Below are positions 2,266-63,088 of a stretch of 64,000 bases of DNA, in pieces. The stretch's first letter is position 1, and every line of letters starts with the position of its first letter. Location of the stretch: positions 85,188,001 through 85,252,000 of the forward strand of contig OX597814.1 of NCBI GenBank assembly GCA_951406725.2, in the 5' to 3' direction. The notes under the pieces are model-generated. The model did no database searches and was not told where the DNA came from. It saw only the letters and a program-made list of their open reading frames with translations. Source of the DNA: Octopus vulgaris (taxonomy: Eukaryota). The position numbers and the translations under genes are program-made.

Positions 2266-2507
2266 CCTCTAGCGTCTAACGTCTGACCTCTGACTTCTGC
2301 CTGAAGTCAGAACGCCATGATAGACCGTTAGCTCCTACACGCATTTTTTCCTTCCTTGTTTCTTTTCTGTGTATCTTTCTGTCGAAGAGCATAGGCTCAA
2401 AACGTAAAAGACTTGTTCTATTTCTATTCCTGAGCGCCATACTAATACATTTGTTTGTACTCCACCTGCCTTCGTCTTTTGTTTATTTTCGTAAACCTTC
2501 CCGTTAC
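2266..2507 (+). mobile_element. Short microsatellite-flanked element carrying a degenerate minimal hammerhead (Penelope-tail-like)
   Basis: Bounded by (TA)n and (TA)(CA)n; contains tcttt-CTGTCGA-a-gagc atag gctc-AAAA-cg-TA-aaaga; a more degenerate copy lies at ~21780-21958. Confidence 0.5.
2374..2411 (+). ncRNA. Hammerhead-like motif, atypical or mutated core
   Basis: Stem I tcttt/aaaga and stem II gagc/gctc are present; the core deviates (CUGUCGA for CUGANGA, AAAA for GAAA). Confidence 0.4.
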
Positions 2508-2644
2508 ATATATACACACACACACACAAACAAACAGATGTATAAATTCATACACATATATATATGTGATGATTGTCTCCTCTTCTCAGATAATAGCCTT
2601 CACACATTGCAAAATGATAGTGAAGCATCTTCATGTCATTGGAT

Positions 2645-2846
2645 TTAAGCGACAAATGCTTGTAAAACACTTTTGCCACTCTCTTGGTCATCATAGTAGG
2701 TTTCAGTGACAAGCATTGCAAGATGACTGGTAACATTTTTGACTTCCAGTTTTATGGCAGAATATTCTCCTCCTAAAAGATCAGCCTTATCCACAGCTTT
2801 GTCAAAAATAACTGGAACCTCTTCTACTCCTGGAAATCTATTTAAC
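2645..2846 (-). CDS. Probable terminal coding exon of an unidentified host gene (LNRFPGVEEVPVIFDKAVDKADLLGGEYSAIKLEVKNVTSHLAMLVTETYYDDQESGKSVLQAFVA*)
   Basis: Acceptor ccttttttatag-like (agtcctttttatag|G, phase 2), protein-like composition, TAA stop at 2645-2647; not a repeat. Confidence 0.6.
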
Positions 2847-2979
2847 CTATAAAAAGGACTCTGACAGGTACTATTTTGGGTCAGAACATACCTAGGAGCA
2901 ATGGTAATAAAGGAGTGACTCCACATTCCCCACAAAACACACACACACATACATACACATACACACACACACACATACC

Positions 2980-3118
2980 ATTGCTTCAGCTCTCCCAGCA
3001 GTCAGAAATGTATTCCAGATCATTCTACTTTAGTCACTAGACTACTATGTATCAATCTTTTTGGTATTGAATTTCAACAGGATGTCCATTAGGCTCATCA
3101 AACATTAATTGGCTAACC
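2980..3118 (+). repeat. ~140-bp local dispersed duplication (copy 1)
   Basis: tcagctctcccagc...agtcactag.ctac.atgtatcaat...ggtattgaatttcaacag...ccattag.ctcatca; second copy at ~5929-6055. Confidence 0.7.
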
Positions 3119-3367
3119 AATAATTTATATATATATATACATTGTGTGTGTGTGTGTGTGTGTGTGTATGAATGTATATGTGTGTATGTGTATATATATA
3201 TACACACACATACACACACACACACACACACACACACACACACACACACAAACACACATTTTTTTCAGGATTAAATTAAAAGACAACAGAAAGTATGACA
3301 TACCTGTGTGTGTGTGTGTGTGTGTGTGTGTGTGTGAGTGTGTATATATATACAATTCAAAAAACGT

Positions 3368-3779
3368 AGGTGTGGCTGTGTAGTAAGAAGCTTGCTTCCC
3401 AACCACATGGTTCCAGGTTCAGTCCCACTGCATGGCACCTTGGGCAAGTGTCTTCTACTATAGCCTCGGGTCAACCAAAACCTTGTGAGTGGATTTGGTA
3501 AGCAGAAACTGAAAGCCCATCATATATATATATATATATATATATATATATATATATATATATATATATGTTTGTGTGCCTGTGCTTGTCCCCGCACCAT
3601 AGCTTGACAACCGATGTTGGTGTATTTACATCCCTGTAACTTAGCACTTCAGCGAAAGACACTGAGAATAAGTACTAGGCTTACAAAGAATAAGTCCGGG
3701 GGTCGATTTGTTCAACTAACAGTGGTGCTCCAGCATGGCTGCAGTCAAATGACTGAAACCAATACAAGAATAAAAGAAT
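3368..3779 (+). mobile_element. tRNA-derived SINE, family A (internal microsatellite, LINE-like 3' tail)
   Basis: tggctgtgtagtaag A-box, ggttcagtccc B-box, caccttgggcaagtgtctt CORE-like motif, internal (TA)n, 3' ggtgctccagcatggctgcagtcaaatgactgaaac...aataaaagaata. Confidence 0.85.
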
Positions 3780-4061
3780 ATGATCATATACTAAATACAC
3801 GTGCATATGTATGTATGTGTGTGTATATATATATATATATATATATTTTGTGAAATAGAAAGATGAATAATCTTGTTGCAGATTAATCAAAAGTTTAACC
3901 GATACCTTGGTAGCAAAAATCACAGCAGAAGACAGCACGGTTGGAGGTACAACCATATGGTGTTGCAACCGTGCGTTGGTGCGGATAATTGAATTTTAAT
4001 ATTATTAGTGAATTGAAGAAATGGAGTTGAACGAAGATTGAACAGAAATCGCTTTATTGCA

Positions 4062-60089: not shown

Positions 60090-60134
60090 TGAACTAGTAC
60101 TTTCATGCATTGAATTCTGCAATCTTCGGGTTCA
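60090..60134 (-). ncRNA. Minimal hammerhead ribozyme in the Penelope 3' end (U4C core variant)
   Basis: Minus strand: tgaac-CCGAAGA-ttgca gaattcaa tgcat-GAAA-gtac-TA-gttca; 5-bp stem I, palindromic stem III. Confidence 0.65.
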
Positions 60135-60197
60135 TGTAGTAGTGTTGACAGTCATGCTTCACAATTTTTGACTGTAGCAAGATGAGTGATTCTGTGC

Positions 60198-60311
60198 TAT
60201 AAATACAGCTGGGTAGGCTCCAGAGTGCTAGGTTTTGCAAACTGTATTCTGACCAATCAGTGTGTAGTATCACTCAATTACTTAAGCTGATTGGTTGGTT
60301 GAGCTGATTGG
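60198..60311 (-). promoter_or_regulatory. Putative pseudo-LTR Pol II promoter: three CCAAT boxes followed by TATTTATA
   Basis: CCAATCAG motifs at 60307-60311, 60290-60294 and 60253-60257 (opposite orientation); TATA-like at 60198-60205, ~65 nt upstream of the hammerhead. Confidence 0.45.
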
Positions 60312-60628
60312 TTTAGGCATCACGCTTTGTTGGACAGGTCAAGAGTCCTGTATCTTGACCCTGGCCGAAGCAGCAATTGTTGGGTTATTTTTAGAAATGT
60401 TGTAAATATCCTTTGTCAGAGATTTTTATATTTTTATATTTCAATTGTCATCATCATCATTGTCAGCACCTTAATTATTGTTGCTAGTGGTGATGGTGGT
60501 GGCAATAGAACTTTTAACCCTAAATAAGATAATTTTCCTGCTATCTTCGTCTTGATCACCTTTAGTATTGTTGTTGTTGTTAGTGGTCATGGTCGTAGCA
60601 GTGGAAGTAATACCTCTAAGTATTATTA

Positions 60629-62435
60629 TTATTGCTTATTTAGCTTGGGTTCGAATTTATCAATAAAATTCTTTTCTCTGATTTTCCTCTCGATTTCACT
60701 TGGGCTGTGTAATTTGTAGAATGGAAATATTATATATATTTTCCGACCACATGTTGCTAGGTGGTTACTCAAAGGTATCTGACGGACCTCTGGGTCTCTA
60801 ATCTGTTGCCGGTGTACACGTGAGCGTTCTAATAGTGCGTTTCCCGTCTGACCTACATATATTTCTTCACAATTTGGGCATTTGATGCAGTAAATTAAAT
60901 TTCTGCTTTTGCAGTTCATATTCGCGTTTGTGAATATTTTCCCGGTTTTTGTGTTTATATATTGACCGGTATGTATGAATTGGCATGTGCCACATCGGCT
61001 ATCATTGCATTTAGATACCGTGAATGTTTGGTCTTTGTTGCTGAGGTCAAATTTTGCCTTTGTTAGTAATGTTTTCAAGTTTTTAGGCTGTCTTTTACTA
61101 AGCACCATAGCTCGATCCTTGATTATGTCTTTTAATTCATTACTTTGGGCAATGATTGGAAGGTTTGCTTTGGCAATGTTGAAGATATTCTGGTGACATG
61201 GGTTGTGTGTCACTATGAATGGTATGACTTGTTCTTGTTTTCCTCTTCCTTGGGTTGTCCTAAGTTGTTGTATAGGTATTTTTATAGCCCGCTGTATGCC
61301 ATTTTCTATAAGTAGAGATGGGTATTTTTGTTTGAGCAAAAATTCTCTTAGTTCTATTAGGCGTTTGTTCCTGATATTTGCATCTTCTACAATAGTACAA
61401 ATTCTTCTGGCTAGGCAGTATGGGATGTTACGTTTTGTATGTGGTGGATGGCACGACTTAAAATTTAGGTATTGATGTGTGTCTGTGTGTTTATAGTATA
61501 TATCTGTGGTGATGGTGGTGTCTTTTTTAATTACCATTATATCCAGGAATGGTAATTTGGTACTACTCATCTCCTTTGTAAATTTGAGAGATGGGTGTAG
61601 GTTGTTCAGGAGGATATTGAACTCTTCCAGAGTATTTAGAGATTCTGTCCAGATTATGAAACAGTCGTCTAGGTATCTCTTCCATGCCTTTTCAATATAC
61701 TTTCTAAATCCAGTGCCATAGTTTACCTCCACCTCTTGGTAGAGTTGTTCTTCTAAGTATCCCATTACAGAGTTGGCGTAAACGGGAGCAAACCTCGTTC
61801 CCATCGCCGTGCCTCTAATTTGGATGTAATTCTTTCCATTGAAGAAGAATGTGTTATTTTCTAGAATAAGTTTGACTGTGTCTAATATAAATGGCACTGT
61901 GAATCTGCTGGGAATCACTTCTCTATGTTTTTCTAACCAGTATTTAATCGCCTTTATTCCTAAATCGTGTGGAATATTGGTGTAGAGGCTTACCACATCA
62001 AAACTTAGCAAAACTGAATTTGTTTCTGTTGTTTTGGGAAGATGGGACAGGAAGTCGATGTCATCCCTGATGAAACTTGGTATGTAAGTACATAGTGGTT
62101 TCAAAACAATGTCAATAAAATTGCTTAGACGGTGTGTAGGGCATGCTGGACCAGCTATAATAGGTCTAAGTTTTAGGTCTTTTGGATGTAATAATTTTAT
62201 GTACTCACTTTCTTGTTCTTTTACTGCCTGTTGAATGTTTTTTTGATTTGTGTATTTTTGGTAAGCCGTAGAAGTTGCTGGGTTTTGGTTCAAAATTGGT
62301 GATGTAGTCTTTTTCATTATCCGTAAGTGAGTTGTGGTGTGTTGAAATCAGGTTGTTGATCTTTTTCATGATGTGGTGGTCTATATTTGCGGGTATTTCA
62401 CAATAGAAGGTTGTATCCTTCAGTTGGTATCCTTC
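60629..62435 (-). CDS. Penelope-like RT + Cys-rich linker + GIY-YIG endonuclease (one frameshift in an A-run near 62240)
   Basis: FYGLPKIHK, LRPII, SFDVVSLYTNIP, GTAMGTRFAP, RYLDD, PFLDI, linker CNDSRCGTC, endonuclease NLIYCIKCPNCEEIYVGQTG...R...H...H. Confidence 0.92.
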
Positions 62436-62451
62436 ATATATATATATATAT

Positions 62452-63088
62452 ATACACAAATTAGTAAATAAATGGCACAACTAAGTACCGATATTTACTG
62501 GAAATAGCGAACGTAAAAATACGACGCTAATGTGTAGCTTCACCGCGTATGTATTAGCAAAAATGCGTGTGTGCAACAAACTAGAGCAAAAAAACGTCTT
62601 ACCTCCAGGGAGAACATCTGAAAGATGAAACACCAGGAAAAGGATAATGTGTGACCTGCAGGTTTCAGGTTTTACAAGATATGTCTCTCACCCATATTTT
62701 GTTTTACCTTCATCAGCCAAGCATATACCAAGACGAAATCTACGATGTTACCACATTAATACTATCACACTCGACTGAAATGCGGAACGCTAACAGCACG
62801 AGAAACGGTGAAGAAGTTTCAAAATATCAGTAATGCAATACAAAGTATCGCCTTCCAGTAAAAAGTAGCCCGTGAGGGAAAAATACACAAATTAGTAAAT
62901 AAATGGCACAACTAAGTACCGATATTTACTGGAAATAGCGAGCGTAAAAATACGACGCTAATGTGTAGCTTCACCGCGTATGTATTAGCAAAAATGCGTG
63001 TGTGCAACAAACTAGAGCAAAAAAACGTCTTACCTCCAGGGAGAACATCTGAAAGATGAAACACCCGGAAAAGGATAATGTGGGACCT
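62452..63088 (-). mobile_element. 431-bp hammerhead-containing tandem unit (~1.5 copies); retrozyme or Penelope pseudo-LTR
   Basis: 62452-62657 repeats almost exactly at 62883-63088; bounded by TA-rich runs. Confidence 0.8.
62650..62719 (-). ncRNA. Minimal hammerhead ribozyme with canonical core
   Basis: Minus strand: tgg-CTGATGA-aggt aaa acaa a atatg[ggtgagaga]catat c ttgt aaa acct-GAAA-cctgcagg-TC-(a/c)ca. Confidence 0.8.

Follow-up and report, generated by a model that had tools for sequence, protein, structure and literature searches.

Known hammerhead-bearing elements

The Neptune clade of endonuclease-bearing Penelope-like elements (PLEs) was reportedly described by Arkhipova in 2006. 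PLEs of the Neptune/Nematis type encode a reverse transcriptase (RT) followed by a C-terminal GIY-YIG endonuclease, with a CX2-5CxxC linker and a CCHH motif, and they combine terminal-repeat hammerheads with tandem units, 5′ truncation, and microsatellite-flanked ends (PMC8557442). The Penelope/Poseidon clade has been described without this linker, and in Naiad and Chlamys, whose insertions are biased to (TA)n or (CA)n, hammerheads are largely lacking and the endonuclease lies at the N terminus (PMC8557442). Poseidon PAc of Anolis, from the Penelope/Poseidon clade, cleaves AT-rich DNA at ATT rather than (TA)n, derives its tail from an internal RT start, and has a protein-assisted hammerhead that overlaps the ORF start (PMC11167929).

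The minimal hammerheads of metazoan PLEs are of type I, with a short stem I, a longer stem II, and a small palindromic stem III, and occur as many divergent families per genome, with copies that stand alone, in tandem, or on opposite strands (Cervera and de la Pena 2014, PMC4209133). Metazoan non-LTR retrozymes, reported in 2020 at 170-400 nt, are non-coding, self-paired tandem units with type I hammerheads, for which mobilisation by PLEs, or an origin from them, has been proposed (PMC7229834; bioRxiv 10.64898/2026.07.22.740005). Minimal PLE hammerheads, their microsatellite bias, and the retrozyme link are already published (PMC4209133, PMC8557442, PMC7229834), and the microsatellite/Penelope/retrozyme system that a sequence-only reading proposed for the octopus locus described here is itself largely published (PMC4209133, PMC8557442, PMC7229834, bioRxiv 10.64898/2026.07.22.740005); the four new families extend the known pattern.

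The octopus locus

The window, meaning the whole 64,000-nucleotide stretch of Octopus vulgaris contig OX597814.1 that was analysed, contains hammerhead motifs in modules of defined layout (A to D, Table 1), an open frame for an RT with an endonuclease, and TA runs adjacent to the modules. These are probably four separate Penelope-type families, one coding and Neptune-type and three non-coding, likely inserted by TPRT after a GIY-YIG nick of TA-rich DNA. The Penelope-type origin and the coding Neptune-type element had both been recognized in the sequence-only reading.

Table 1. Modules, hammerheads, and adjoining TA runs in the window
Feature	Position	Strand	Details
TA run left of module A	2254..2264	none	11 bp
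Module A, old non-coding element	2266..2506	+	approximate ends, placed by flanking repeats
Hammerhead A, minimal, decayed	2374..2411	+	U6, A12; stem II GAGC/GCUC, 5′ A unpaired; stem III CG
TA run past B tail	3824..3846	none	23 bp
B tail, ~150-bp extension past 3′-most B repeat	3847..3996	-
B1 terminal-repeat copy	3997..4217	-	perfect hammerhead core 4062-4126; 15 bp deleted in loop II
TA run separating B1 and B2	4218..4233	none	16 bp
B2 copy	4234..4467	-	perfect hammerhead core 4297-4376
B3 inverted copy	4468..4694	+	hammerhead 4556-4635, U3
TA run at B3 3′ end	4695..4730	none	36 bp
Second copy of family A, more decayed	21843..21951	+	72% identical; inside (CA)n stretch, without TA run
Module C, 5′-truncated copy of young Neptune-type Penelope-like family	59952..62435	-	family unit ~4.27 kb; 3′ side at 100-N gap
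Hammerhead in C terminal repeat	60090..60133	-	C4; U.U at stem II base; stem III GUAC
C open frame, 572 codons	60629..62347	-	RT, C-x4-C-x2-C linker, GIY-YIG endonuclease with CCHH
TA run common to C 5′ end and D 3′ end	62436..62454	none	19 bp
Module D, 1.5 copies of 431-bp non-coding unit	62452..63088	-	copies 98.5% alike
Hammerhead D	62650..62720	-	perfect core; long stem II; stem III CCUGCAGG; first stem I pair broken here
TA run at D 5′ end	63091..63098	none	8 bp; adjoins SINE tail

Hammerhead motifs and their fold

A descriptor of the minimal type I hammerhead was scanned over the 36.8 kb of non-array sequence in the window. It matched without core mismatch at 4123 and 4373 (both minus strand, in B1 and B2), with one mismatch at 4559 (plus strand, U3) and 60129 (minus strand, C4), and with two at 2379 (plus strand, U6 and A12). 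The average over 25 shuffles was 0, 0.24, and 3.7 hits for zero, at most one, and at most two mismatches. By these counts the B and C motifs stand above chance and the A motif alone is at the chance level; A is backed by the second copy of its family, which the sequence-only reading had not listed. The D motif escaped the descriptor because its first stem I pair is broken in the window copy, a pair that is intact in the second D copy and in the family contigs. Descriptor matches at 11299-11308 and 17773 were judged to be chance.

Read against the core CUGANGA...GAAA...UH in type I order, B1, B2, and D are perfect, B3 and C carry one change, and A carries two. All six motifs lie where the sequence-only reading had placed them, in four sequence families with different palindromic stems III (CG, CACGUG, GUAC, and CCUGCAGG), and its description of the modules as unrelated is true at the sequence level, the best between-family BLAST matches being 14 bp (E 0.03-0.13). 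By core and stem order the A to D motifs are minimal type I hammerheads, with self-cleavage as a prediction. They share the features published for PLE hammerheads; the differences lie at the base of stem II, where 7 of the 13 aligned Neptune motifs have U.U in place of G10.1-C11.1, and in the 8-nt stem III palindrome of D.

When the C motif was aligned with 12 motifs from related loci, 86% of cells were paired and 49 were compensatory, giving a covariation of 0.82 compared with 0.20 in shuffled and at most 0.15 in slid controls, a test that leans towards structure because the descriptor that picked the motifs already demands these stems. A model from these 13 motifs matched 27 of 40 loci at E<=0.2, and 15 of the matched loci had played no part in training; the related loci used for comparison include same-family pairs and short contigs. 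Run on the window, the Neptune-motif model recovered C, as its construction ensures, reached B1 with no better than E 2.8, and missed A, B2, B3, and D. Taken singly, the motifs showed no folding advantage over shuffled sequence (z -0.02 to 0.35), and the best 150 of 174 Rfam matches included no hammerhead, only microsatellite and hairpin matches below gathering scores. For A and B, stem pairing is seen within the window copies only. Covariation supports the predicted fold for C, with its 12 relatives, and for D. Among the D family contigs, positions N7 (62712) and H17 (62653) are variable and stem I is intact again (62652); in run X18 the pair 62702/62674 changes from A-U to G-C, at equal depth.

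The Neptune-type element

The frame of module C matches the Pfam families RVT_1 (E 3e-6, slightly short of the curated cut-off) and GIY-YIG (E 5e-6), with the RT preceding the C-terminal GIY-YIG domain in one ORF, and its protein has 1121 homologs, the best of them 62-63% identical. All 22 aligned proteins have the cysteines of the linker and the CCHH motif, and residues C408/C413/C416, C451/C454, H473, and H490 are invariant in the protein alignment. Domain order, linker, and CCHH motif support the assignment of C as a Neptune/Nematis-type PLE, and C has every one of the Neptune/Nematis characters given above. It resembles Naiad and Chlamys in its apparent insertion bias and differs from them in endonuclease position and in having a hammerhead.

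An X2 contig of 4301 nt carries both window parts of C in permuted order, as a tandem unit with pseudo-LTRs. The family contig nearest to the window copy is one letter and one gap apart, the window frame is shifted by one base near 62238 when compared with family contigs, and 2412 of 5954 aligned contigs reach at least 99% identity, as in a young, abundant Neptune-type family, with contig depth not equated with copy number; this contig comparison was read from the 40 of 291 letter differences and 24 of 849 loose ends listed. Such a family offers material for questions raised in PMC8557442, namely the cause of the microsatellite bias and the role of the hammerhead. The C family has C4 in its hammerhead, unlike the 12 of 12 relatives with U4, and an excerpt of PMC3088659 reports that C4 reduces hammerhead activity in vitro. 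The motif at 60090, which the sequence-only reading listed as a module besides the coding Neptune element, lies inside the terminal repeat of C and is therefore not a separate passenger; the same element had been counted twice.

The non-coding modules

Module A represents an old, decayed family. Module B is an ORF-less insertion with terminal repeats in tandem plus inverted order, and its layout of inverted repeat, tandem, and tail is the one described in PMC8557442. A peptide from the B tail, considered as a partner ORF, matched only two repetitive proteins without a Pfam family. Searches of A, B, and D against 89 related loci and 120 proteins gave no useful match and no coding partner.

Module D, a partial tandem built on a 431-bp unit, has the character of a retrozyme. 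With metazoan retrozymes it shares a non-coding, self-paired unit in tandem and a type I hammerhead; its longest stop-free frame has 68 codons without a protein match, and the monomer fold has a z of -3.0. It is labelled retrozyme-like only, because its second copy contains just the 3′ end of the motif, which leaves one complete hammerhead, and it is also unlike the retrozymes reported in 2020 in its slightly greater length and in its minimal rather than canonical motif. The partial copy begins 4-5 nt ahead of the predicted cleavage site. The head-to-tail junction is covered by the main contig of two runs (62601-62912, reaching ~30 letters beyond the junction, which is at the limit for bridging), and two X7 contigs contain the junction of a shorter unit.

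It is possible, though doubtful, that each of A, B, and D is what remains of the terminal repeats of a separate coding PLE whose body was truncated or deleted. In genomes a minimal hammerhead is most often a lone remnant left by a truncated element (PMC4209133), and the B layout of a pLTR plus tail would fit such an origin, as would the contigs of X7 and X18, in which the 3′ part of D is deeper than the 5′ part, as expected from 5′ truncation; the D junctions, the identical base at which B1 and B2 start, and the lack of any ORF or protein match for A, B, or D argue against it.

Association with TA runs

Module ends lie at (TA)n of at least 8 bp at 5 of 9 outer sites, the boundary at 2 of these 5 having been set by the TA run itself, compared with 3.4% of background positions. 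An initial by-eye control, in which TA adjoined 8 of the 14 non-Penelope ends, was biased by a TA array and was supplemented by a systematic count of dispersed SINE/RTE ends, only 2 of 28 of which lie at (TA)n (Fisher p 0.005 for the contrast, in a single window). The contrast falls to p=0.09 after adding five TA-flanked non-Penelope ends from the array at 30234-38454, so the expected enrichment holds over background and over SINE/RTE ends but, within the window, not clearly once array-embedded ends serve as controls. The sequence-only reading had every module abutting TA repeats, and each does have at least one end at a run of at least 8 bp; C and D share one such run, however, the C 3′ end has only 7 bp of TA, which the family contig itself also has, before the gap, and at the A 3′ end 7 bp of TA give way to (CA)n. 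The second A copy is without TA at both ends. Seven X7 contigs have a TA run at the D 3′ end. In related loci, a TA run of at least 8 bp lies within 160 nt after the hammerhead in 7 of 21 cases and before it in 2 of 27 (p 0.03), and even tandem units without interruption (L002, L010, L011, L022) have a short TA patch after the hammerhead.

The data do not fit a pure (TA)n bias, because the second A copy sits in (CA)n and three non-Penelope inserts sit in TA arrays. These inserts, each with both ends in TA arrays, are a LINE fragment at 36162-38053 (RVT_1), an RTE-tailed element at 30839-31448, and a 215-bp piece at 35575-35788, and they would be expected if no enzyme preference existed and TA runs were fragile or tolerant sites collecting any insertion, or if AT-rich ends grew later by slippage, with assemblies joining there. 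We consider this unlikely: although TA runs are described as prone to breakage in excerpts of PMC12972899 and PMC11797062 and an assembly gap lies at the 3′ side of C, the dispersed SINE/RTE ends rarely lie at TA, the 3′ TA bias is seen again in related loci on other contigs, and two Penelope/Poseidon endonucleases have an AT preference in vitro (PMC11167929).

Mobilization

If four separate Penelope-type families are present, a tandem RNA would be made, and its palindromic stem III could pair two motifs into a dimer, with cleavage being slow or protein-assisted. The endonuclease, likely guided by the C-x4-C-x2-C linker, would nick (TA)n or similar dinucleotide repeats, and the RT would begin near the short TA patch 3′ of the hammerhead and stop early, yielding truncated, tandem, and inverted copies. 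Poseidon PAc is alike in its AT-rich cleavage, internal RT start, and protein-assisted hammerhead, and unlike in its clade, cleavage site, and hammerhead position. Modules A, B, and D likely use enzymes of some coding PLE family, not necessarily C. The sequence-only reading had proposed one endonuclease common to the families and non-coding modules riding on the Neptune element of the window; neither proposal is borne out, as A, B, and D have no likeness to the C terminal repeat and no partner ORF among the loci and proteins searched.

It is improbable that a single system is at work, with D, and perhaps B and A, moved in trans by the Neptune enzyme of C and with D-(TA)n-C formed as one chimeric insertion when the RT jumped templates and wrote or copied the TA run. 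D and C lie on the same strand and are linked by one TA run, as B2 and B1 are with their identical start base, but two insertions into one TA run would look alike. At locus L008 a Neptune 3′ end is followed by a 13-bp TA run and then a piece of the ORF of another family, of which L020 has an intact copy without a TA run there, and the TA patch in uninterrupted units is also in keeping with a single system; the C family contigs, however, run on into their own 5′ part and not into D, no sequence is common to D and C, the site at which the Poseidon protein begins RT has no homology to the cut DNA (PMC11167929), and TATATATA in a pLTR is interpreted in an excerpt of PMC3846280 as a TATA box. Very unlikely, too, is telomerase-style writing of (TA)n by the Neptune RT, recopying the short UAUAUA patch behind the hammerhead at starts or jumps, with D-(TA)n-C, B2-(TA)n-B1, and L008 as single chimeric insertions.

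The significance would be greater if TA runs were RT products or if C mobilised D, the latter because the enzyme moving animal retrozymes is only a candidate in the literature. RT-written TA runs would be direct traces of ribozyme RNA riding a Penelope-like enzyme, and of an element seeding microsatellites. The feedback on microsatellite content that had been suggested is not borne out in the window, where 26 of 33 dispersed TA runs of at least 8 bp have no module beside or around them. The 21-kb microsatellite block at 38455-59850, free of element remnants, is pure TAA/TG/TC repeat.

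Probable TA bias of the Penelope-type modules

The ends of the four Penelope-type modules, A to D, are likely to have a modest bias toward TA runs, a bias exclusive neither to TA nor to Penelope-type elements, as judged from counts in the window, in contigs of four public runs on 59952-63100, and in related loci from other contigs. Of non-array positions, 3.4% lie inside or ≤10 bp from a TA run of ≥8 bp. Seven of 11 module ends examined are at TA, as are 5/9 module sites (the run common to C and D merged, the internal run of B left out) and 4/5 when the count is restricted to ends that duplication or family contigs pin down. 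SINE and RTE-tail ends are at TA in 2/28 cases (p 0.005 versus module sites), a control that becomes 7/33 (p 0.09) once five non-Penelope ends inside a TA array are added. At least seven contigs of run X7 have a TA run at the 3′ end of D, among 24 of 849 loose ends listed, while the 3′ side of C meets a 100-N gap, so that its 3′ end gives no TA verdict. In related loci, the 17 kb downstream of the ORF hold 14 TA runs of ≥8 bp, versus 7 in the 40 kb upstream and 3.4 in shuffles; 9/38 loci contain such runs. A TA run lies within 160 nt of the hammerhead in 7/21 loci downstream versus 2/27 upstream, with loci having <100 nt available left out and same-family pairs kept.

Hammerhead families

Motifs were sought with a descriptor for minimal type I hammerheads, and 25 shuffles yielded 0, 0.24, and 3.7 matches at 0, ≤1, and ≤2 mismatches (table). 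The motif at 62650-62720 in D has a perfect core, but a single broken stem I pair in the window copy hid it from the descriptor. No hammerhead is among the Rfam matches listed for the window (150/174), and single motifs fold no better than shuffled sequence, as expected given such small stems. As the sequence-only reading had it, the four families are unrelated in sequence, with only 14-bp chance matches between them; its hammerhead modules beside (TA)n were confirmed in part, as the 60090 motif, there set apart from the coding Neptune element, is C's own.

Hammerhead motifs and other elements in the window and related loci
Feature	Position	Strand	Basis or setting
Perfect hammerhead cores	4123, 4373	minus	descriptor
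Hammerhead core, one mismatch	4559	plus	descriptor
Hammerhead core, one mismatch	60129	minus	descriptor
Hammerhead core, two mismatches	2379	plus	descriptor
U.U-bearing hammerheads	L010:3042-3091, L014:1585-1634, L020:2526-2575, L028:2298-2348, L032:3199-3248, L081:1844-1893, window 60090-60133
5′-truncated LINE fragment, short tandem tail	36162-38053		inside TA array
RTE-tailed element	30839-31448		inside TA array
215-bp piece	35575-35788		inside TA array
LINE, 720-codon RT frame with internal PHD-like finger, 63-bp tandem repeats, (GAT)n tail	8527-11320
Decayed mariner-type transposon copy	28861-29886		Transposase_1 match
Second decayed mariner-type copy	~12845-13706		by eye

The four families are further members of a published kind. 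PMC8557442 cites Arkhipova 2006 on Neptune-type elements. PMC4209133 describes many divergent families per genome with minimal palindromic hammerheads, PMC8557442 the microsatellite bias and linker hypothesis, and PMC7229834 and bioRxiv 10.64898/2026.07.22.740005 retrozymes and Penelope elements together; related literature includes PMC3846280, PMC6765202, PMC3124438, and PMC12602865. Octopus vulgaris has 31 recently active Penelope-like families according to PMC13282606, whose text does not contain the word hammerhead. Among the papers listed in literature searches, no title or abstract opening dealt with Penelope hammerheads in cephalopods or with TA runs written by RT, a scope that excludes Repbase, supplements, and subscription papers.

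The Neptune-type element

The C-x4-C-x2-C linker and CCHH residues, named as marks of Neptune and Nematis in PMC8557442, are invariant in all 22 proteins aligned, 21 taken from 120 listed plus that of the window. A 4301-nt contig of run X2 opens with window 60159-62426 and closes with 59952-60188, a permuted order from which a family unit of ~4.27 kb, tandem or circular, follows, the window copy being without ~1.8 kb. Family contigs are one base shorter at 62238, and the window copy is therefore frameshifted. A 9-bp direct duplication adjoining a TA run at the 5′ junction (62412-62435) may be a template slip.

The odd features of the C hammerhead are not private decay, since the X2 contig equals 59952-60188 without difference and the U.U at the stem II base recurs in 6/12 relatives; 7/13 Neptune-type hammerheads thus bear it, with a 4-nt palindromic stem III. 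C4 of the window motif occurs in 0/12 relatives; a natural U4C variant has weaker in vitro activity (PMC3088659). The 13 motifs have 86% paired cells and covariation of 0.82 versus 0.20 shuffled, figures that lean to structure because the motifs were chosen with a stem-requiring descriptor. A model built from them matched 27/40 loci at E≤0.2, 15 of these outside the training set. Neptune-type contigs L081-L085 sit in bacterial genome bins (SUP05, Bacteroidota, Campylobacteraceae) and are likely misbinned host-animal DNA.

Non-coding modules

In module D, a 431-bp non-coding unit is present 1.5 times; the copies are 98.5% alike, and the monomer folds with z -3.0. Among 40 of 291 letter differences listed on 59952-63100, D family contigs have the broken stem I pair restored at 62652 and show variation at two free positions, N7 (62712) and H17 (62653); the pair change they carry at 62702/62674 has equal depth at both positions in run X18. 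The start of the partial copy, 4-5 nt ahead of the predicted cut (63084-63088), looks as if copying stopped just beyond the ribozyme junction. From sequence alone, D resembles a non-LTR retrozyme in its predicted working, but it lacks the two complete ribozymes by which bioRxiv 10.64898/2026.07.22.740005 recognizes these elements.

Module B runs from inverted repeat through direct repeat, 16 bp of TA, and direct repeat to a 150-bp tail, the Penelope-like layout drawn in PMC8557442 minus the body; it contains no ORF, and a peptide search of the tail gave no credible protein match. The A motif alone is at chance level by descriptor versus shuffles. A second, more decayed A copy (21843-21951, 72% identical) lies inside a (CA)n stretch of a SINE, without TA. 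U occupies core position 6 in both copies and may be a trait of the family.

Insertion and junctions

The best reading is target-primed reverse transcription: TA-rich DNA would be nicked, each of the separate Penelope-type families inserted there, and the hammerheads would act as dimers on tandem RNA. For a Poseidon element, PMC11167929 demonstrates AT-rich cleavage and an internal RT start, together with a protein-assisted hammerhead dispensable for in vitro insertion. The sequence-only reading is supported in part: it keeps its Penelope-type families and a likely, modest TA bias, but a common endonuclease has no support, with no link found between C's enzyme and A, B, or D. Feedback on microsatellite content is likewise unsupported in the window: of 33 dispersed TA runs, 26 neither adjoin a module nor lie within one, and the 21-kb repeat block has no element remnants.

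At three junctions (D-C, B2-B1 between the direct repeats of B, and related locus L008), two elements stand head to tail via a short TA run. At L008:2170-2333, one Neptune family's 3′ end is followed by a 13-bp TA run and part of the N-terminal ORF of a different family, a layout matching D-TA-C. Such junctions would be accounted for by template jumps in which the RT writes the TA, and in favor of these the intact copy of that ORF part (L020:2860-3027) has no TA run, and uninterrupted units, too, have a short TA patch behind the hammerhead. Two insertions into one TA run would also explain them.

Other repeats in the window

SINEs, presumably like those of octopus genomes, and microsatellites are abundant. 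Positions 30234-59850 (~30 kb) are nearly all TA, TAA, and TG arrays, followed by the 100-N gap; within them, 38455-59850 is 21 kb of near-pure (TAA)n with (TG)n and (TC)n blocks inside, ending at the gap, and assembly may account for its length. Three islands interrupt the long TA arrays (table), the LINE fragment among them presumably CR1/L2-like; the LINE with the 720-codon frame is taken to be RTE-like.
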